A stretch of DNA of 64,000 nt, from IMG/VR virus record IMGVR_UViG_3300032897_000001, positions 1-64,000 of that record. The stretch is one strand, 5' to 3'. This document shows positions 8,961-40,613 of this stretch, piece by piece. Below the pieces are notes generated by a model. That model did not search any database. It was not told where the DNA came from and saw nothing but the letters and a program-made list of their open reading frames with translations. How positions within the stretch are numbered: the first letter of the stretch is position 1; every line of letters starts with the position of its first letter. This stretch comes from a virus. The position numbers were made by a program, and so were the translations under genes.

Positions 8961-9041
8961 GTTGACGTGCCGCAAGGGTAGCGGACCATTCTGTGACCAC
9001 GCACAGAGCGGAAGTCGCGGGTTCGAATCCCGTCGTTGACA
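8961..9041 (+). tRNA. tRNA-His(GUG)-like gene with a 9-nt insertion in the anticodon loop
   Basis: Acceptor GTTGACG/CGTTGAC, D arm CCGC/GCGG, T arm GCGGG-TTCGAAT-CCCGT. The anticodon arm is 26 nt instead of 17. No encoded CCA. Confidence 0.7.
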
Positions 9042-11431: not shown

Positions 11432-12100
11432 ATGACAGAGCAACAACAGCGTTTGGATTTTTGGGCACAGTGCACACCGCTTCTTAGGAAGCTGGCCGCG
11501 GAAGGCGTCACCGCGCCCAAAATCGCCATGCGTTTGTTTGAAGAGACAGGAACCCCGATTTCCTCGCGATCGGTACGGGAGAAGGCACAGCGTCTCGGAA
11601 TCAAACTCGTCTCAACGATTTCGGAATCCCCGTGGGATGGCAAGACTGAACAGCTTAAGGAAATGTGGGAACAGGGCGTAAGTGCATCACAGATCGGTGC
11701 TAAGCTTGGCTTGTCCCGTAGTGCAATTATTGCCAAGGTGCATAGGCTGGGTTTGCCACGGCGCATGTGGGTGACGCCAGCGATTAAACCACAACTCGCG
11801 CCACAGCGGCCATTGTCGAATGTCAAGCCTGCAACTAAGGCATTGCCGAAACCTGCGGCAAAGCCTGTGTCGCAGGTTAAGTCTGATGATACGGACTTTC
11901 CCGTAGAAAGTGGACATGGGGAATCCGACACTACAGAGACGCGTACATCAAAAAACTGCTCTATCATGGAGTTGGACAGCCAGCACTGTCGCTGGCCTAT
12001 CGGGAAGCCCGGGACACCGGATTTTTGCTATTGTGGAGAAACACCGGTACGCGGCAATGTGTATTGTGCTAAGCACCATCGCATGGCGTACAATCTGTAA
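11432..12100 (+). CDS. gcrA: GcrA-family cell-cycle transcriptional regulator
   Basis: LKEMWEQGVSASQIGAKLGLSRSAIIAKVHRLGL plus C-terminal CRWPIGKP...FCYCG...YCAKHHRMAY. Carries an extra N-terminal HTH-like segment. Confidence 0.9.
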   Translation: MTEQQQRLDFWAQCTPLLRKLAAEGVTAPKIAMRLFEETGTPISSRSVREKAQRLGIKLVSTISESPWDGKTEQLKEMWEQGVSASQIGAKLGLSRSAIIAKVHRLGLPRRMWVTPAIKPQLAPQRPLSNVKPATKALPKPAAKPVSQVKSDDTDFPVESGHGESDTTETRTSKNCSIMELDSQHCRWPIGKPGTPDFCYCGETPVRGNVYCAKHHRMAYNL

Positions 12101-33335: not shown

Positions 33336-33465
33336 ATCTGCCTCCTTTCTCCGTCTTGTGTGTAGCGCGATATTCGAAATGCCTCCAGTGGATTTTTTGG
33401 ATTTTTTTCAAAAAACTTGTTGACGTTTCCTGGGGAACGATTATTATCTGTCTTGTCAGACAGAG

Positions 33466-33557
33466 ACGAAAGGCGGTGACACGGGCAGGTCCAATGGTAA
33501 TCGGCAGAACTCAGTCCCCTAACGTATGAACGGGAAAGGACTGGTGGGAGGCGAAAA
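33466..33557 (+). ncRNA. Conserved 92-nt leader RNA, copy 1 of 4 (others at 34825-34916, 37712-37803 and 40222-40313)
   Basis: Near-identical copies between promoter and hammerhead, with a compensatory stem swap cagtcc/ggactg versus agactc/gagtct. Confidence 0.75.
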
Positions 33558-33613
33558 GGTCGAAACGGCGGAGATTCCGCCGTCGTGCCGTGAGGCGGCA
33601 CCTGATGATGGCC
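33558..33613 (+). ncRNA. Type II hammerhead ribozyme 1
   Basis: ggtc GAAA cggcgga-gat-tccgccg UC gtgccg-tgagg-cggcac CUGAUGA u ggcc. Confidence 0.9.
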
Positions 33614-33630
33614 AAACAGGGAGAACAACT

Positions 33631-34089
33631 ATGTCGGTTTGTCAAATTTGTGGTAGAGCGGTCAAATCCAAAAATGGCGTGATCGCACACCACGGCTTCA
33701 AACGTCCCGGGCAGGGCTGGCAGACTGCTTCGTGTTACGGAGCGAAATATCGCCCCTACGAAGTAGCGAAAGACGCTTTAGAGAACTACTTGCCTGAAGT
33801 CAAAAAGTGGATGAAAATCAAACAGGAGTCGTTGAATTCTCTCCTGGACTGTCCGCCCGATAAGCTTGACGCAGTCATCAAGCTTGATGCTTCGGGCAAA
33901 ATGAAGAGTGTCGTTTATACCAAACCCGACAATTTCGATAAGAATGACAACCAGCACTACGTGCAACCGCACTCATATGCGGGGGAGTACCGAAGCAAGG
34001 TACGGCACCTGCGGATTCAGATTGCGGAGATGGTTCAAGACATCGGATATCTGACGCAGCGGATAGCCGATTGGAAAGGAGAGGCGTAA
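33631..34089 (+). CDS. Early hypothetical protein with a Cys/His motif
   Basis: RBS after hammerhead 1; CQICGR...IAHHG...ASCYG. Confidence 0.75.
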   Translation: MSVCQICGRAVKSKNGVIAHHGFKRPGQGWQTASCYGAKYRPYEVAKDALENYLPEVKKWMKIKQESLNSLLDCPPDKLDAVIKLDASGKMKSVVYTKPDNFDKNDNQHYVQPHSYAGEYRSKVRHLRIQIAEMVQDIGYLTQRIADWKGEA

Positions 34090-34467
34090 GCCTCTCCCAT
34101 GCTTTGCTCGGGGTGATTTGAAAGTTTTTTGAAAAATCTTCAAAAAACAGGTTGACGTTTCCTGGGGAATGATTATTATCAATCTTGTCAGACGGGCCGG
34201 ACGGGCCAGCCCAAAAAGGGGAGTAACGATTATGGCGGAACAGACAATGACTTGGCGGATCGTGCGGCGCGCATATTCCCAATACCATCTTGTTGAAGAG
34301 GGAATCGCGTCATGGCAGGATGCACAGATCCGGTCAATGGATTTGCAGTACAAGAATAAAGACGGGGAGTATCTCGTGATCCGGGCGGATGCACCTAATC
34401 ACGATTACAGTGGCCCCAATTACGGCCAGTCCCCCTTTGATTACCTCTAGGAAAAGGAAGAACCTCT

Positions 34468-34737
34468 ATGAAACTTTCGGCAGAACAACTCGCGATTCTT
34501 CGTGCTCTTGATGGCGGACCCGAGGAAACTGGCATTATCGCCATTTTCGCCAATGTGTCGGGGTACAGTGTGGGAGCACGGAACCGAAAGGCACGGAACC
34601 TGCTTTTGGAACTGAAATACCACGGTTTCGTCGAGTACGCGGATAGTGAGAAGCCGTGGATCTGGCAGCGTACCGAAGCAGGAACCGCGGCTATTGCGGG
34701 AAGCCCGACACAGCGCCAACCCCGCAGAAAGGCGTAA
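34468..34737 (+). CDS. Small wHTH-like protein related to 13025..13297
   Basis: Shared G.VEY.D....W.RT.AG motif. Confidence 0.55.
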   Translation: MKLSAEQLAILRALDGGPEETGIIAIFANVSGYSVGARNRKARNLLLELKYHGFVEYADSEKPWIWQRTEAGTAAIAGSPTQRQPRRKA

Positions 34738-34916
34738 ATGGGCGCCAAAAGTTTTTTGAAGTTTTTTCAAAAAATTTGTTGACGTTTCCTGGGGAATGTT
34801 TATTATCAGTCTTGTCAGACAGAGACGAAAGGCGGTGACACGGGCAGGTCCAATGGTAATCGGCAGAACTCAGTCCCCTAACGTATGAACGGGAAAGGAC
34901 TGGTGGGAGGCGAAAA

Positions 34917-34972
34917 GGTCGAAACGGCGGAGACTCCGCCGTCGTGTCGTAAGGCGGCACCTGATGATGACC
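34917..34972 (+). ncRNA. Type II hammerhead ribozyme 2
   Basis: Full core GAAA...GUC...CUGAUGA; stem II ggtc/gacc. Confidence 0.9.
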
Positions 34973-35219
34973 AAAGGAGAAAGACACCATGCCACGTATG
35001 AGAATCACAATCGAAGTCGAGACCGCTTCATTCAAGAACATGGGAGAGCGGAACAGATTCAACAAAAAGGTGTTGGAAGTGGCCCAGGCCGCTTTCCCCA
35101 CCATCGGGAAACAAGAACTCGTTTTTGTCTCGACTGAAGACATGTCCGGGCATGCCATCTGCCTGGGTGAAGACGGTATGCCAACCAACGCCGTTCGTTA
35201 TTGAAAGGAGCAATGATCC

Positions 35220-36107
35220 ATGAAAATCACTCTCAACACCGCTGCTTTTTGGGCAGCGTGCGCGATGTCGGCATTTGCAGGCATTGTCGCAACGTCCGGG
35301 CTTGCCAGCTTCATTCCCGGTGTCAACGTCCTGGGCGTTAATGCCGTGTGGGTGATGGGTATCTTATTCGAGGTTGGCATGCTGGTTGCGTTTGCCTATC
35401 TTCACAAGCATTGGCAGACGATCAGCCCCAGTCTCAAATACGGACTTGCCGTGCTGGCAAGCATTGTTATTGTGCTTGACATCATCGGGGTAGCCGGCCA
35501 ATTTAGCCAAGGCTACCAAGCACGGCGGCACGCCGCTGATGCGGCAAACATGGTGGCAGTGACCAATGCAGCGGCGCACATTGCGCAAGCCGAAGACGCT
35601 GTTGCAGAGCTTGACAGACAGCTTGCTGCGGTAAGCGAGGAAATCAACAAAATTTCCGATGCACAGATCCGCGCCAAGGACGATAGAGACCGTGTCAAAG
35701 CAGCACGGGCACTCAAAATTGAGGCAGAGTCCCGGAAGACTGCTTTGCTCCAGAAACGGGCGGAAGCGTCTAGCGTTCTGCTTGCGGCACGGACCGAAAA
35801 GGGTGCGGCTGATGCATCTGCGGTTACCGGATCGGGAGAGTTTGCCGCGATCCAGTTTGCGGCACAGTCACTCGGATGGAGCGAAGATGCTGTTGCCCGT
35901 GTGATAATCTGGATCTTGTCCGGGCTGGCGTGCTTGTTTGCACCATGCTTGATTGCAGTGTCAGGACACGAAACTACTCCCATCAAAGTCAAGGCGCCCG
36001 AAAAGGTGCTGACTGCCCGGCAGATTGCGGCGCGTAAGGGCGCGGAAACCCGGAAGCGCAACAAGGCTCTCAATGCCAAAAAGAATGTTGTGGCGTTGAA
36101 GGCGTAA
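35220..36107 (+). CDS. Membrane protein with a coiled-coil region
   Basis: Three N-terminal hydrophobic helices, a coiled coil, one further TM helix and a basic tail. Confidence 0.75.
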   Translation: MKITLNTAAFWAACAMSAFAGIVATSGLASFIPGVNVLGVNAVWVMGILFEVGMLVAFAYLHKHWQTISPSLKYGLAVLASIVIVLDIIGVAGQFSQGYQARRHAADAANMVAVTNAAAHIAQAEDAVAELDRQLAAVSEEINKISDAQIRAKDDRDRVKAARALKIEAESRKTALLQKRAEASSVLLAARTEKGAADASAVTGSGEFAAIQFAAQSLGWSEDAVARVIIWILSGLACLFAPCLIAVSGHETTPIKVKAPEKVLTARQIAARKGAETRKRNKALNAKKNVVALKA

Positions 36108-36166
36108 GGCCGAAACACAGGACAGGTGCCCTGTGTCGCACCGTAAGGCGGTGCCTGATGATGGCC
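36108..36166 (+). ncRNA. Type II hammerhead ribozyme 3
   Basis: Core intact; stem III cacagg/cctgtg and stem I gcaccg/cggtgc. Confidence 0.9.
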
Positions 36167-36597
36167 AAAGGAGAGCACAACATGTGTGGTGACAAGAAAA
36201 CACAGATCGCGGGAATCATTGATTTCTGCAGAGAAAATGACCTGACATATATGAGGTACAACGGAAGGGGGATGTTCAGTCGGGAATGCTTTGCGGTTAG
36301 CATCCCGGACATAGGCACGCTGTGGGACTTGGCAGCATTCCTTGGTGACCCTGCGTTGCCCACACCTAGCACAGACCAGCTTGGCAGAGGCTACGTGGCC
36401 TATTGGCCCGATCATTTCCCTATGACTGGCCCTCTCGGGACCTATGTTGACTTACAGCTTCGCGGGGAAGGCGTGGATTGATCCTGGCGCCGAAGATTTT
36501 TTGAAAAATCTTCAAAAGCCTGTTGACGTTTCCTGGGGAAAGGCGCACAGTGACTTTGTTGGCACCGGGGTGGCGCCTGGAAAGAGGAGGAACTGTC

Positions 36598-36867
36598 ATG
36601 GTGATGCGTGCACTGCGCTGGAAGCGCAAGTTTCGTGCAGTAAAGCTTTCCAAACCCACCAAGACCCTGTTTTACGGCGTGTTCTGCCGTGGCAACCTTG
36701 TTGTCAAGTGCCGCAACGAAGCTAGCGCGATCGACTTTATCGAACGCCAGACCGCAGAGGATCGCGAATGGCGCCGCAGGCAGGTTCTTGAATATCTCGC
36801 AGAACGTGCTCAGCGGGCTGTTGTGGTTGACACTGAGCAGGCGCCCGACCAGTTGGAACTGTTCTAA
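36598..36867 (+). CDS. Small basic early protein ending in a beta-clamp-binding-like motif (QLELF)
   Basis: GAGGAGG RBS; C-terminus APDQLELF. Confidence 0.65.
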   Translation: MVMRALRWKRKFRAVKLSKPTKTLFYGVFCRGNLVVKCRNEASAIDFIERQTAEDREWRRRQVLEYLAERAQRAVVVDTEQAPDQLELF

Positions 36868-36869
36868 AA

Positions 36870-36924
36870 GGCCGAAACACGGGATATCCCGTGTCGCACC
36901 GTAAGGCGGTGCCTGATGATGGCC
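36870..36924 (+). ncRNA. Type II hammerhead ribozyme 4
   Basis: Core intact; stem III cacggga/tcccgtg. Confidence 0.9.
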
Positions 36925-37803
36925 AGAAAGAGGAGACAAACAAATGCGTGTATATTTTAACCCCGATGTGGTCGCGGCATATGGCGATATGGCCGATACC
37001 CCTGAATTCAAAGTCGGTTTTATGGATTTCTATTTAGGAGTTCTCAACAATTCTGTGCCGGATCTTTTGCGGGATGAAAAATCCGCAATCGCTTGGCGTT
37101 CTGGGTGGCATGCCGCACAAGCGTGCGCCGAAAGTTTTTTGAAAAATATTCAAAAAGACTGTTGACGTTTCCTGGGGAATGCTTATTATCAATCTTGTCA
37201 GACGGGCCGGACAGACCGAGCCAGACCAGAAAGAGGGGAGACGGTTATGGGTTCCTATGAAATCATCCGCCACGAAATCAAGAATGTGAAGGCAGCGAAA
37301 GCGGCGTTCGCCCGGCTGGAAGCCGCATACAAAATGGTTGATGCGGAATACGTCAACGATGAGTCTTGGCAGGAGTTCCACGGCGTTGAGTACAAATTCG
37401 GCGGTTTGGCGTGGTGGAAGGCCCGTGTGCTGGCAATGACCATCAGGATTGAGTGGCAGGCTAGTACCCGCGTGTTCATCTCTCCCCCTTCCGAGGAAAG
37501 CCGCAACAAGGACTCTTTTGAAGGTGGTCACCACGAAGTATACACCGATCGCAAGGCATTGGCTGCAGCGCAAATCAAGGTGGCCGCGTTGCTCCGCGGC
37601 TAACCCCACGGCGCCCATGGACTTTGTGGGCGCCAAAAGTTTTTTGAAGTTTTTTCAAAAAACTTATTGACCTTTCCTGGGGAATGCCCTAGAGTAGCTT
37701 TGTTGGTTGGAACGAAAGGCGGTGACACGGGCAGGTCCAATGGTAATCGGCAGAACTAGACTCCCTAACGTATGAACGGGAAAGAGTCTGTGAGAGGCGA
37801 AAA

Positions 37804-37859
37804 GGTCGAAACGGCAGAGACTCTGCCGTCGTGTCGTAAGGCGGCACCTGATGATGACC
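37804..37859 (+). ncRNA. Type II hammerhead ribozyme 5
   Basis: Core intact; stem III cggcaga/tctgccg. Confidence 0.9.
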
Positions 37860-37875
37860 AAAGGGAGTACCGATC

Positions 37876-38172
37876 ATGAAAAACGAAGCATTTGAAGCCG
37901 CTCTTGCAGCATTCTTGGTTGCCGCACAAGCTTTGTGCGATGCCAGCGGCTCTTACAGCTATACCAAACTGTCTATGCAATACGGGCGCCGTTATGTCCG
38001 TATCGTCGCAGAACGCTCCGGACAACAGTCCGTATGGGGATTTGTGGACACCACAAACGGGAATGTGCTTAAGGCAGCCAGCTGGAAAGCACCCGCTACC
38101 AAATATGCACGCGGCTGCATTTATGACGAAAATCGGGGTTGTGGCCGGGCAAGGTGGATGGGTGTTGCTTAA
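37876..38172 (+). CDS. Conserved phage early protein
   Basis: GRRYVRIV...SVWGFVD...GNVLKAASWKAPA...ARG, a pattern I recognise as a recurrent small phage protein. Confidence 0.7.
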   Translation: MKNEAFEAALAAFLVAAQALCDASGSYSYTKLSMQYGRRYVRIVAERSGQQSVWGFVDTTNGNVLKAASWKAPATKYARGCIYDENRGCGRARWMGVA

Positions 38173-38176
38173 AGCA

Positions 38177-38232
38177 GGCCGAAACGGCGGAGATTCCGCC
38201 GTCGCACCGTAAGGCGGTGCCTGATGATGGCC
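38177..38232 (+). ncRNA. Type II hammerhead ribozyme 6
   Basis: Core intact; stem II ggcc/ggcc. Confidence 0.9.
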
Positions 38233-38473
38233 AAAAGGAGAAAGACAATGGCAGAATTTATCGTGTCAAAATACAAAATCGGCGACATCGTAACTTTGAA
38301 AAGCGGCGAGGTGTTGCGCATTACCGCGATCCGCGATCGCGCCCACTACACCAAGGCCGCATATAGTGCGGTGGAAGTCCGTAAGGGTAAGCGTCCTGGT
38401 AAAGAACGTCTCTTCATTGAGGCGGACGCGTCATGACGCGGCATAACGAAATTCAAAACGCTGGGGAACAAAA

Positions 38474-40105
38474 ATGACACAGACCAAAAGCCAGATTGTT
38501 GCGGCGGATGTCGCCGCTTTGTTGCGGGCGCGGAACCCGCTGATTTGGATCGTTACCCGGGAAGAATCTCGGGTTGAAACCAACATTGTGCAGGCCGCGG
38601 CTGCAGCGGGATATGGTGCCTGCACATGGGATGTCGCACAAGGCGCACGCACTATCGACGGGGCACGGGTGCCGGGTAGTGATGGCACTGAGGATGTCAG
38701 CGCCATGTTCGCGATGATAAAGGCACAATCCGAAAATGTGCAGCGTGCACAACGGTGCGTGTGGATCATGCGAGACTTGGCGCCATGGCTGCAAGGGCCA
38801 ATCGGCATGGTCACGTTGCGACAGCTTCGGAACCTTGCCCGGGCACTGCCCGGGACCGGGCGGAGCACGTCACAGGCAATCGTCGTGTTGACGACTTCCC
38901 CAAATGTCCCGGACGAATTGGAGGGACACGCGGTAGTGATCGAATGGCCCTTGCCCGATCGCGAGGAAATTGCGGCAATCCTTGACGCTGCAATCACGGC
39001 ACTGCCCGAAAACGATGAGAAAGGCGTGCCCGTTCGCGGTCCCGCAACACCAATCAATGGGGTTCGCGAGGCAGCAATTGATGCGGCGGTGGGGCTTTCC
39101 GGAGAGGAAGCCGCGGCGTGTTTTGCAAAATCCTTGGTACAGATCCGGAAGATCGACCCGCCGCTGATTACCAAGGAAAAGCGCCGCGTCATCTCCAAGG
39201 CAGGTGTTTTGGAGTGGTTCGAACCGCTTTCTGGCGGGTTGGGCGCTGTGGGTGGTCTCGACAATCTAAAAGATTGGCTGATTGCCCGGCGCGCCGCTTA
39301 TTCGCCACGTGCGCGGGCTTATGGTCTGCCAGCGCCAAAAGGTGCACTCCTTGTTGGTGTCCCCGGGTGTGGTAAGTCGCTCACAGCAAAGGCTGTTGCA
39401 ACAGCCTGGGGCGTGCCCTTACTTCGGATGGACCTGGGCGCATTGAAGAGTAAATATGTGGGCGAATCCGAAGGGAACCTTCGGAAAGCGTTCCAGATCA
39501 TTGAAGCCATGGGGCGGTGCGTCGTGTGGCTGGATGAAATTGAAAAAGCCTTGGCAGGCGCAACGCAAGGCGCTGCAGATGGTGGCGTGTCATCGGATGC
39601 TTTGGGCGCCATTCTAGGGTGGATGCAAGATCGTAGCGGACAGGCGTTTGTCGTAGCTACTGCAAACGACATCTCTGCGCTGCCTCCGGAATTGCTCCGT
39701 AAGGGGCGATTTGATGAAGTGTGGTTCGTTGATTTGCCGAACCCTGATGAACGGGCAAGCATCCTGTCCGCCGCATTACGGGCACACGGTCGGGACACCA
39801 AAACGCTTGTGTCCAAAGAACAGGATTCCGCTGCTGTAGTTGCAGCAACGGAAGGCTTTTCCGGAGCCGAAATTGCGGCACTGGTTCCGGACGCCATGTA
39901 TACGGCATTCGGAGATGGGGAACGGGAAATTACCGTGGATGATCTGTGGTTTGCTGCAAGGCAGACTGTGCCGTCAACCCGGACATCAGCAGAGAAGATT
40001 GAGAAATTACGGGAATGGTCCCGCAGTGGTCGCGCAAGGCTTGCCACACGGACAGTTTCCAAGGCGGAGACTACACAAGGAACCGGGCGCAAACTCGACA
40101 TCTGA
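38474..40105 (+). CDS. Ycf46-like AAA+ ATPase
   Basis: Walker A GVPGCGKS, Walker B VVWLDEIEK, SRH TAND...LPPELLRKGRFDE, and a degenerate N-terminal AAA domain. Confidence 0.88.
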   Translation: MTQTKSQIVAADVAALLRARNPLIWIVTREESRVETNIVQAAAAAGYGACTWDVAQGARTIDGARVPGSDGTEDVSAMFAMIKAQSENVQRAQRCVWIMRDLAPWLQGPIGMVTLRQLRNLARALPGTGRSTSQAIVVLTTSPNVPDELEGHAVVIEWPLPDREEIAAILDAAITALPENDEKGVPVRGPATPINGVREAAIDAAVGLSGEEAAACFAKSLVQIRKIDPPLITKEKRRVISKAGVLEWFEPLSGGLGAVGGLDNLKDWLIARRAAYSPRARAYGLPAPKGALLVGVPGCGKSLTAKAVATAWGVPLLRMDLGALKSKYVGESEGNLRKAFQIIEAMGRCVVWLDEIEKALAGATQGAADGGVSSDALGAILGWMQDRSGQAFVVATANDISALPPELLRKGRFDEVWFVDLPNPDERASILSAALRAHGRDTKTLVSKEQDSAAVVAATEGFSGAEIAALVPDAMYTAFGDGEREITVDDLWFAARQTVPSTRTSAEKIEKLREWSRSGRARLATRTVSKAETTQGTGRKLDI

Positions 40106-40313
40106 TGCTGGTTAGCGAAGCTGTGGCGGGTGCTGACAGCTTCGCTAAGTTTTTTGAAAAATATTCAAAAAACTTGTTGACGTTTCCCGAGGGAACCCTT
40201 AGGATAGCTTTATTAGTTGGAACGAAAGGCGGTGACACGGGCAGGCCCAATGGTAATCGGCAGAACTCAGTCCCCTAACGTAGGAACGGGAAAGGACTGG
40301 TGAGAGGCGAAAA

Positions 40314-40368
40314 GGTCGAAACGGCGGGTTCCCGCCGTCGTGTCGTGAGGCGGCACCTGATGATGACC
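40314..40368 (+). ncRNA. Type II hammerhead ribozyme 7
   Basis: Core intact; upstream of the 56-aa ORF at 40386..40556. Confidence 0.9.
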
Positions 40369-40557
40369 AAAGAGGAGCAAACACAATGAATACCAAAATG
40401 AAGAAGTTCAGTGCCGTTGCCTTCAAGGGCGAAGATCGGTTCATGTTTTCGTTCGATTGGCCCAACTGGTATCGTATCGAAGAAGAGGCGCGGCGCGTGC
40501 TGGATGAGAAGGGTTTCCCGGATTGGGAGTTCCGTAGCATCGATATTCGCGCATAAA

Positions 40558-40613
40558 GGCCGAAACGGCGGATATTCCGCCGTCGTGCCGTGAGGCGGCA
40601 CCTGATGATGGCC
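40558..40613 (+). ncRNA. Type II hammerhead ribozyme 8
   Basis: Core intact; lies between the stop at 40556 and the RBS of 40631. Confidence 0.9.

Follow-up and report, generated by a model that had tools for sequence, protein, structure and literature searches.

Eight type II hammerhead ribozymes at gene starts in a wetland phage genome, four of them behind a conserved leader RNA

Organization of the locus

We analysed the first 64,000 nucleotides (the window, to which all coordinates refer) of IMG/VR record IMGVR_UViG_3300032897_000001, the complete 100.8-kb genome of a wetland phage. Between positions 33558 and 40613, within 7 kb, lie eight type II hammerheads (HH1–HH8), all on the plus strand and all at gene starts. 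The core pattern GAAAC..GTC..CTGATGA matches nine times in the 64-kb window, against 0.08 matches expected by chance, and eight of these matches are the elements reported here; the ninth, at 11848, failed the stem tests.

The block comprises seven short transcription units with promoters of the sigma-70 type, which, like all other features described below, lie on the plus strand. Promoter cassette P1 (33393..33447) consists of an AT-rich palindrome, TTGACG, a conserved 16-nt spacer with TTTCCTGGGGAA, and TATTAT. The cassette of P3 (34752..34806) is 96% identical to that of P1 over 224 nt, P6 (37640..37695) reads TTGACC-17-TAGAGT and P7 (40150..40205) reads TTGACG-17-TAGGAT. Three further units are without a hammerhead: P2 (34125..34179) and P5 (37135..37189) have a short leader, and P4 (36497..36551), with a less clear −10 hexamer, has none. 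An intrinsic-terminator-like hairpin with a T run (37610..37644) closes the P5 unit immediately before P6, and a 13-bp hairpin with a T run (40112..40155), recognized by reading the sequence, lies 3′ of a gene for an AAA+ ATPase, immediately before P7. Judging solely from the density of promoters and the small size of the open reading frames (ORFs), the genes of the block may be early genes.

Four hammerheads are preceded by a conserved leader. HH1 (33558..33613, predicted cut after 33584) lies behind leader 1 and ends 17 nt before the ATG (33631) of a 152-amino-acid ORF; HH2 (34917..34972, cut predicted after 34943) lies behind leader 3, 16 nt from the ATG (34989) of a 71-amino-acid ORF; HH5 (37804..37859, after 37830) lies behind leader 6, 16 nt from the ATG (37876) of a 98-amino-acid ORF assigned to phrog_5014; and HH7 (40314..40368, after 40339) lies behind leader 7, 17 nt from the ATG (40386) of a 56-amino-acid ORF. 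The other four follow a stop codon. HH3 (36108..36166, predicted cut after 36137) directly abuts the stop of a 295-amino-acid ORF (end 36107; gap 0 nt) and ends 15 nt before the ATG (36182) of a 99-amino-acid ORF, and HH4 (36870..36924, after 36895) begins 2 nt behind a stop at 36867, 19 nt from the ATG (36944) of a 73-amino-acid ORF. HH6 (38177..38232, after 38203), 4 nt behind a stop at 38172, ends 15 nt before the ATG (38248) of a 62-amino-acid ORF, next after which comes the AAA+ ATPase gene (38474–40105). HH8 (40558..40613, after 40584), 1 nt behind a stop at 40556, ends 17 nt before the ATG (40631) of a 285-amino-acid ORF assigned to phrog_11021. The interval between ribozyme and start codon contains a ribosome-binding site (RBS; GGAG, AGGAG or GGGAG) in all eight copies. 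The spacing of 15–19 nt with an intervening RBS, and the division into four elements behind a leader and four directly behind a stop codon, agree with a preliminary description of this DNA.

Hammerhead architecture and covariation

Each element runs through the 5′ strand of stem II, GAAA, the stem III hairpin, GUC, the stem I hairpin, CUGAUGA and the 3′ strand of stem II. This is the type II permutation, in which loops close stems I and III and stem II is open. The core (CUGAUGA plus an extra U, GAAA and GUC) is present in 8/8 copies. The inserted U is a single nucleotide between A9 and G10.1, which fits a position where an added nucleotide is tolerated and where an extra U increases the cleavage rate of the CChMVd hammerhead 3–4-fold (PMC3705267). 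All 136 cells of the stem alignment (17 pairs × 8 copies) are paired; seven of the 17 pairs have changed on both sides, and the pairs that close the stems next to the core (A-U, C-G and G-C) do not vary. Sliding the partner strand by 1–3 columns, as a control, gives 28–56% pairing. Every copy has the hammerhead three-way junction as its minimum-free-energy structure, with predicted stabilities of −9.5 to −13.0 kcal/mol for stem III and −7.3 to −10.0 kcal/mol for stem I. Pattern count, anatomy and pairing thus bear out in every detail the earlier claim of eight covarying hammerheads with an invariant core and an extra U after A9.

As paralogues of a single genome, with P1 and P3 cassettes that are nearly identical, the eight copies represent few independent covariation events. 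This concern is removed by a family-wide alignment of 104 distinct relatives from other viral contigs, in which 98.8% of cells are paired and 14 of the 17 pairs show compensatory changes, although this alignment was fitted to the model. Compensatory changes in all three stems around an invariant core show selection on the RNA fold, beyond DNA identity. They argue against the idea that the repeats are kept chiefly as DNA boundary sequences for shuffling or duplicating cassettes between early genes, with ribozyme activity incidental or residual. That idea draws on the position of the elements at gene boundaries, on the duplication of whole promoter–leader–ribozyme cassettes (at 96% identity) and on related phages with a 57–66% identical ATPase, in which the retrieved sequence around the ATPase gene, at most 10 kb to each side, contained no hammerhead. 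The stems, however, vary between copies exactly where recombination needs identity, and we consider such a role very improbable.

A pseudoknot-free subclass of type II hammerheads

By sequence, the eight elements are type II hammerheads of a known kind, and their subclass also occurs in other viral contigs. In Rfam, Hammerhead_II (RF02276) ranks first and alone gives a meaningful match, with 22.7–32.3 bits for five copies; no copy reaches the gathering threshold of 37 bits, and three are unlisted even at E<10. They share with RF02276 the permuted topology, the CUGAUGA/GAAA/GUC core and a GCCAAA-like 3′ flank, and differ in having a 4-bp stem II with a bulged U (2–3 bp in RF02276) and a 5-nt loop I that has no complement in the tail.

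The open 4-bp stem II, the bulged U after A9, the 5-nt loop I and the lack of a pseudoknot between loop I and the 3′ tail define a subclass that is a minority among type II hammerheads. The complement of loop I is absent from the 3′ tail in 8/8 copies in an alignment read by eye, and a scripted scan, which parsed two of the eight copies, found 1 bp in each. Of 178 further type II hammerheads in the retrieved loci, 157 have a loop I/tail pseudoknot of at least 4 bp. Members of the subclass have a loop I that reads U-N-R-N-G, and stem II is bordered by an A at its 5′ edge in 14/14 and at its 3′ edge in 13/14 members from other contigs. The core pattern with the extra U matches in at least 119 viral contig stretches, and a model of the subclass, run on 80 stretches, yielded 106 matches; these covary very strongly, and many of them stand in arrays of 4–10. 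Phage type II hammerheads (n=145) also resemble ours in position, 55% of them ending 10–25 nt before an ORF start compared with 19% of random positions.

The pseudoknot is present in most type II hammerheads and, in tested examples, is required for fast cleavage at low Mg2+. Given its absence here, predicted cleavage at cellular Mg2+ could be slow or conditional. The ribozymes might then be switches whose cleavage depends on Mg2+, a factor or ribosome traffic, timing or tuning the downstream gene, as was raised for slow phage variants by Perreault et al. 2011 (PMC3088659). The four copies 0–4 nt behind a stop codon lie inside the footprint of a terminating ribosome, which would unfold stems II and III. 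The conserved loop I and the flanking A residues could belong to such a switch, but they may simply form an alternative tertiary contact under which cleavage is fast and constitutive. The extra U is also compatible with high activity, and no ligand-binding domain is apparent within the ribozyme; we regard switching as quite improbable.

A conserved leader RNA

The leader upstream of HH1, HH2, HH5 and HH7 forms a covarying hairpin whose 21-nt apex (CCUAACGUANGAACGGGAAAG) is invariant, with Shine–Dalgarno-like purine blocks on both sides. The conserved core of leader 1 spans 33466..33557, with the hairpin at 33512–33543; leader 3 (34825..34916) is identical to it, leader 6 (37712..37803) has compensatory hairpin arms (AGACUC/GAGUCU versus CAGUCC/GGACUG) and leader 7 lies at 40222..40313. 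Over these four copies conservation is higher in the leader core than in the stems of the hammerheads, and the hairpin covaries across ten sequences. The leader matches no Rfam family. It recurs, with the 21-nt apex unchanged, in 15 other phage or metagenome contigs, which represent seven further sequence types, and there lies directly behind promoters. It is a conserved, previously undescribed phage RNA, and the less ordinary part of the locus; clustered gene-flanking phage hammerheads and the idea that they process transcripts have been known since 2011 (PMC3088659).

What follows the leader differs between homologues. In one sequence type (L162 and L163) a type III hammerhead lies downstream of it, and in L157–L159 a long perfect hairpin occupies the site of the hammerhead of the phage studied here. 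Since two unrelated topologies, type II and type III, follow the same leader, cutting the leader off the mRNA looks like a solution that recurs. It is possible, though somewhat doubtful, that the promoter-proximal hammerheads liberate this widely conserved leader as a separate RNA, about 130 nt long and closed at its end by a hairpin and a 2′,3′-cyclic phosphate, and that type II and type III ribozymes were recruited to this end independently.

A broader version, which we hold to be unlikely, makes release of the leader as a discrete small RNA that ends in a hairpin and has its own function (such as a trans-acting decoy, sponge or protein-binding RNA) the main role of the promoter-proximal copies, with the intercistronic copies setting different segment stabilities and the mRNA 5′ end a by-product. 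The conservation and covariation of the leader, its recurrence behind promoters and the two topologies downstream of it favour this version, as does the position of the four leader copies behind near-consensus promoters, which would give high dosage. Phage-array hammerheads that free small guide RNAs have been confirmed by sRNA-seq in VIPR systems, whose vrRNA arrays are interspersed with hammerheads (bioRxiv 10.64898/2026.04.26.720920). Like those, the hammerheads here could liberate discrete small RNAs; unlike them, they lie between or behind mRNAs and a hairpin leader rather than GGY/NN guide arrays. In the homologues L161, L165, L168 and L169, however, the leader runs without a ribozyme straight into an RBS and start codon, which suggests a 5′ UTR element that acts in cis; a search of the phage genome found no antisense target of the leader; and the four hammerheads behind stop codons are left unexplained.

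Proposed function

We favour, with a probability of roughly 0.6, the view that these are functional pseudoknot-free type II hammerheads that give eight genes in the seven-unit block a standard, context-free 5′ end. Each hammerhead would cut the nascent RNA after GUC, about 45–50 nt upstream of the next start codon. Type II cleavage necessarily places a 5′-OH flush against the stem I hairpin on the 3′ product and leaves a 5′ product with the stem III hairpin at its end. The downstream mRNA would therefore begin with a GC-rich hairpin of 6–7 bp, followed by about 12 nt that had been part of the core, by an A-rich spacer and by the RBS, and the upstream RNA would end in a 7–8-bp hairpin and GUC with a 2′,3′-cyclic phosphate. 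In four units the conserved leader (about 95 nt) would be detached from the mRNA within the RNA of about 130 nt described above. The analysis establishes the sequence, structure, covariation, placement and family membership of the elements; cleavage in vivo, stability of the products and insulation as the selected benefit are inferred. No RNA run was found to contain the sequence.

A role in insulation and mRNA stability is plausible. In synthetic constructs the insulator RiboJ, reportedly the sTRSV hammerhead with an added hairpin, is placed between promoter and RBS, and HH1, HH2, HH5 and HH7 occupy the same place between a promoter-proximal leader and an RBS. As with RiboJ, the predicted outcome is removal of upstream, promoter-derived 5′ UTR and a 5′-OH end capped by a hairpin. 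The phage ribozymes differ in being natural, of type II and free of an extra hairpin, whereas RiboJ is an engineered type III ribozyme with a 3′ hairpin that exposes the RBS; and RiboJ removes a variable UTR, whereas the phage ribozymes would remove a highly conserved leader. Predicted accessibility of the RBS is the same before (0.53–0.81) and after (0.54–0.77) cleavage, so that no unmasking switch is evident, and any benefit of insulation is invisible in folding.

The preliminary description proposed a natural insulator acting through a protective 5′-OH. The RiboJ-like position of four copies is consistent with the first part. The second does not hold everywhere: in hosts with RNase J, to which the host of this phage may or may not belong, a 5′-OH end is a degradation signal, and the 5′-OH product of the glmS ribozyme is reportedly degraded in such hosts. 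The flush hairpin is the safer argument for stability. Cutting of a long polycistronic RNA is not needed here, because the units are already short, with a promoter each and in some cases a terminator. The array is also dispensable in the clade of phages with a 57–66% identical ATPase, whose ATPase flanks (up to 10 kb) contained no hammerhead. Circularization of the 40386..40556 transcript by an RtcB-type ligase, also put forward, is pure speculation: the phage encodes no RtcB, and circles were sought in phage hammerhead clusters by Perreault et al. 2011 (PMC3088659) and none were found.

Relation to known systems and implications

In T7, host RNase III cuts the early mRNAs, and SP82 early RNA, cut likewise, carries a polypurine stabilizer at its 5′ end. 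The processing proposed here resembles this in that early transcripts would be cut at defined hairpin sites just 5′ of RBSs into stable monocistronic pieces; the long perfect hairpin that the leader homologue of L157–L159 has in place of the hammerhead is a further parallel. It differs in that no host enzyme would be required and that the ends would be a 5′-OH and a cyclic phosphate. The idea of transcript processing was itself published by Perreault et al. 2011 (PMC3088659), who described clustered hammerheads in phages and prophages, proposed that they process transcripts into single-gene mRNAs and found that clustered prophage hammerheads cleave in vitro and in vivo. In that work the 5′ end of a phage transcript was mapped to a hammerhead 13 nt before the start codon of an early gene. 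Our array resembles those clusters in having several type II hammerheads in one phage region, at gene boundaries and close to the next start codon, with the same proposed role, which extends to an archaeal-virus hammerhead 13 nt ahead of an early gene. In contrast to them, half of its members are promoter-proximal behind a conserved leader, its units are already short and the loop I/tail pseudoknot is absent.

The phage offers an unusually clean test bed for the role of bacterial and phage hammerheads, which has been in question since their discovery in 2011. It holds eight near-identical ribozymes, some promoter-proximal and the others intercistronic, together with ribozyme-free units of the same promoter family (P2, P4 and P5) as internal controls, and since the promoters look like standard sigma-70 promoters they may be active in laboratory hosts. 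An alternative tertiary contact may operate in the subclass that lacks the pseudoknot, whose loop I and flanking A residues are conserved in a manner of their own. If the leader is indeed released, it would represent a new class of phage small RNA matured by a ribozyme, or of aptamer-like leader. Its recurrence ahead of hammerheads of different topology provides a concrete hypothesis on what a phage gains by cutting its RNA right behind its own promoter.

Eight type II hammerheads in a 7-kb block

The parent record is a complete virus of 100,794 bp assembled from a wetland metagenome. A pattern for the permuted hammerhead core matched the window nine times, against 0.08 matches expected by chance, and eight of the nine are the + strand type II elements within positions 33558–40613 that we denote HH1–HH8, whose coordinates and cleavage sites were set by a stricter parse. 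The order of parts is the same in all eight: the 5′ strand of stem II (GGUC or GGCC), GAAA, the stem III hairpin and GUC make up the 5′ half, and the stem I hairpin, CUGAUGA, an extra U and the 3′ strand of stem II (GGCC or GACC) the 3′ half. Each ribozyme is separated from an ATG by a gap of 15–19 nt that contains GGAG, AGGAG or GGGAG. Upstream, a conserved leader RNA precedes four of the elements (HH1, HH2, HH5 and HH7), and the other four start 0, 2, 4 and 1 nt past a stop codon. Across the eight copies, standard pairs occupy 136 of 136 cells and both sides have changed at 7 of the 17 stem pairs; in controls with slid partners, pairing fell to 28–56%. Every copy has the hammerhead junction as its minimum-free-energy fold. 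Pattern, stricter parse and pair counts thus bear out the preliminary description of these elements (their number, core, covariation, extra U, ribosome-binding site (RBS) spacing and upstream contexts) in every checked detail, and its predicted cut after position 33584 agrees with the parsed cleavage site. HH1–HH8 very probably cleave in vivo. The phage sequence occurs in two wetland-metagenome DNA runs only, one of them probably from the source sample, and in no RNA run, and no near-identical phage genome was found in GenBank.

Pattern matches elsewhere were rejected. The one at 11848 failed the stem criteria, and a weak match outside the window (genome position 75996–76057) barely passes: its stem II has 2 bp and its stems I and III have 4 bp each, and it is most likely due to chance.

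A pseudoknot-free subclass

Because the eight copies are paralogues, some of them in near-identical cassettes (96% over 224 nt), we sought independent sequences. The core pattern with the extra U occurs in at least 119 stretches of viral contigs, and a covariance model derived from HH1–HH8 gave 106 matches in the 80 of these stretches on which it was run. Their alignment, of 104 distinct sequences and fitted to the model, shows 98.8% pairing, with compensatory pairs at 14 of 17 positions. At the gathering threshold, Rfam detected no hammerhead in the window, only three tRNAs. Its only meaningful match to the elements, Hammerhead_II, appears for five of HH1–HH8 and is sub-threshold, at 22.7–32.3 bits versus 37.

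These low scores reflect a difference in structure. In the fetched phage loci, most of the type II hammerheads combine a 3-bp stem II with a 4–6-bp pseudoknot in which loop I pairs with the 3′ tail, and a pseudoknot of 4 bp or more is present in 157 of 178. In HH1–HH8, stem II has 4 bp and itself covaries (C-G, U-A, U-G), loop I is 5 nt long (U-R-A-G-G), and the 3′ tail contains no complement to it. Of 192 distinct type II hammerheads parsed, 14 belong to this pseudoknot-free subclass, which is also found in unrelated viral contigs (for example L099, L086, L053, L071, L029, L056 and L044). Its loop I consensus is U-N-R-N-G; the bulged U is present in 14 of 14 members, as is an A before stem II, and an A follows stem II in 13 of 14. 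Unpaired but conserved, these residues may form an alternative tertiary contact. Natural hammerheads are known in which an additional nucleotide separates A9 from G10.1, and a U there raises the cleavage rate of the CChMVd hammerhead 3–4-fold (PMC3705267).

Arrays of 6–10 type II hammerheads per 3–4 kb are also seen in L086 (IMGVR_UViG_3300046517_000866), L053 and L084, where they include members of the pseudoknot-free subclass, typically directly past a TAA stop. Among 145 phage type II hammerheads, 55% end 10–25 nt ahead of an ORF start, versus 19% of random positions, so fixed spacing between ribozyme and RBS is common among phage hammerheads generally rather than peculiar to this phage.

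Transcription units of the block

The block contains seven copies, P1–P7, of one promoter cassette on the + strand, the first at 33393–33447, and an eighth lies near the left end of the genome at 1169–1213 (around 1196). Each comprises an AT-rich palindrome, TTGACG, a conserved spacer with TTTCCTGGGGAA, and TATTAT or a variant. The palindrome, TTTTTTGAA..TTCAAAAAA, lies upstream of the −35 element and the spacer TTTCCTGGGGAA is near-palindromic; both resemble operators to which one or two regulators would bind. With seven promoters and terminator-like hairpins with T runs ahead of several of them, the transcription units are short. P1 drives leader, HH1 and a gene; P3, leader, HH2, two genes, HH3 and a gene; P4, a gene, HH4 and a gene; P6, leader, HH5, a gene, HH6, a gene and an AAA+ ATPase; and P7, leader, HH7, a gene, HH8, a gene and onward. 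The units of P2 (two genes) and P5 (one gene) are without a ribozyme. Their short leaders open with a GC-rich 5′ hairpin (34190–34231 and 37200–37246), which may provide alternative capping of the 5′ end.

The products of the block are mostly small and without family, a few matching PHROGs of unknown function; the ATPase matches PF00004. Immediately upstream is a gene for a family A DNA polymerase, and ‘early’ is a reasonable if tentative label for the block genes. Relatives of the ATPase (L009–L023, 57–66% identical) have no hammerhead in their fetched flanks of up to 10 kb, as searched by covariance model, structural regular expression and Rfam; over these flanks, the array is a lineage-specific acquisition rather than a clade-wide feature. 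Elsewhere in the window, the Rfam alignment shows 11 nt inserted around the anticodon loop of the tRNA gene at 8961–9041, one of three in the phage; this gene may be intron-containing or aberrant.

The leader RNA

A leader core of about 92 nt separates P1, P3, P6 and P7 from their hammerheads (33466–33557, 34825–34916, 37712–37803 and 40222–40313, + strand). Its four copies are almost invariant, apart from one hairpin in which a swap is fully compensated. The leader is a covarying hairpin with an invariant 21-nt apex, CCUAACGUANGAACGGGAAAG, and Shine–Dalgarno (SD)-like purine blocks on both sides. Rfam returned no match to it at E<10, patterns of 36 and 20 nt matched no viral contig, and the 21-nt apex is absent from 185,579 prokaryote genomes. 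The apex pattern does match 6 viral and 9 metagenome contigs (among them L155 and L157–L169), which fall into about seven more distinct sequence types; every one carries the invariant apex on a stem of differing sequence, and four stem pairs show several compensatory types among ten aligned sequences. The motif occurs shortly downstream of promoter-like sequences, with an SD-like purine block on its 5′ side, joined there in many cases by AAUCGGCNGAAC, and GCGGAGAGGAG-like purines on its 3′ side. It is absent from the other hammerhead-bearing contigs (L024–L154).

A coding leader peptide is ruled out by short ORFs that vary in frame, length and sequence among homologues, and also by the covarying hairpin arms; complementarity to the phage genome is limited to chance 9–10-mers, and no antisense target was found there. 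On comparative sequence grounds, we regard the leader as a real structured RNA of soil and wetland phages. It has apparently not been described before; we found nothing on its sequence in the literature.

What follows the leader differs among homologues. In L161, L165, L168 and L169 a start codon stands directly behind it. L157, L158 and L159 have a 16-bp perfect hairpin between leader and first gene, about 60–110 nt past the apex; this hairpin occupies the place held by the hammerhead in the present phage and may be a processing site of the RNase III type with an equivalent role. L162 and L163 carry a type III hammerhead behind the leader, at L162:2452–2510 on the + strand, where it was parsed by hand, and at the homologous site on the − strand of L163. 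Both consist of GUC, a 6-bp stem I, CUGAUGA, a 2-bp stem II and GAAA. The minimum-free-energy fold of the L162 element is the hammerhead junction, and Rfam gave no match to it at E<1. Loop II of the L163 element contains the SD for the next gene, whose ATG comes immediately after stem III. We conclude that the leader is probably cut away from the mRNA by two different ribozyme topologies.

A further possibility is that the promoter-proximal hammerheads exist to release the leader as a mature RNA with a role of its own. Hammerheads release small guide RNAs in phage VIPR systems, whose GGY/NN arrays are in some cases interspersed with them (bioRxiv 10.64898/2026.04.26.720920), which makes such a reading plausible. 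The present leader differs in not being a GGY/NN guide, a vrRNA of that kind being ruled out by eye from the lack of 5-nt periodicity, and we consider this role rather unlikely.

Proposed effect of cleavage

Cleavage would leave a downstream RNA with a 5′-OH and with stem I from its very first nucleotide, and an upstream RNA ending in stem III followed by GUC and a cyclic phosphate. Predicted energies are −7.3 to −10.0 kcal/mol for stem I and −9.5 to −13.0 kcal/mol for stem III, and the two halves are joined by the 4-bp stem II only. Both products would thus be hairpin-capped, one opened by stem I and the other closed by stem III. There is no sign of a switch that unmasks the RBS: folding predicts that the RBS and start region are as accessible before cleavage as after it.

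The interpretation of the elements as insulators that yield stable, hairpin-capped mRNAs stands in part. Predicted folding fits the capping of both products; protection by the 5′-OH depends on the host, since RNase J in Bacillus degrades the 5′-OH product of the glmS ribozyme. The suggested circularisation by an RtcB-type ligase finds no support, and no RtcB was found in the phage genome. Spliced or circular products were sought without success by Perreault et al. in 2011 (PMC3088659).

That study described the first natural type II hammerheads, often clustered around single genes or short gene blocks of prophages, showed that the clustered arrays cleave in vitro and in vivo, and suggested that they process long phage transcripts into gene-length mRNAs; for a halovirus, it also reports a hammerhead that lies 13 nt ahead of the first early gene's start codon and whose cleavage site coincides with a mapped 5′ end (PMC3088659). 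The present array is therefore not new in kind, and the insulator or stability reading is a refinement of an existing hypothesis. We assign a probability of roughly 60% to the full model, in which the hammerheads would process the transcripts of the block, define their 5′ ends and detach the leader.
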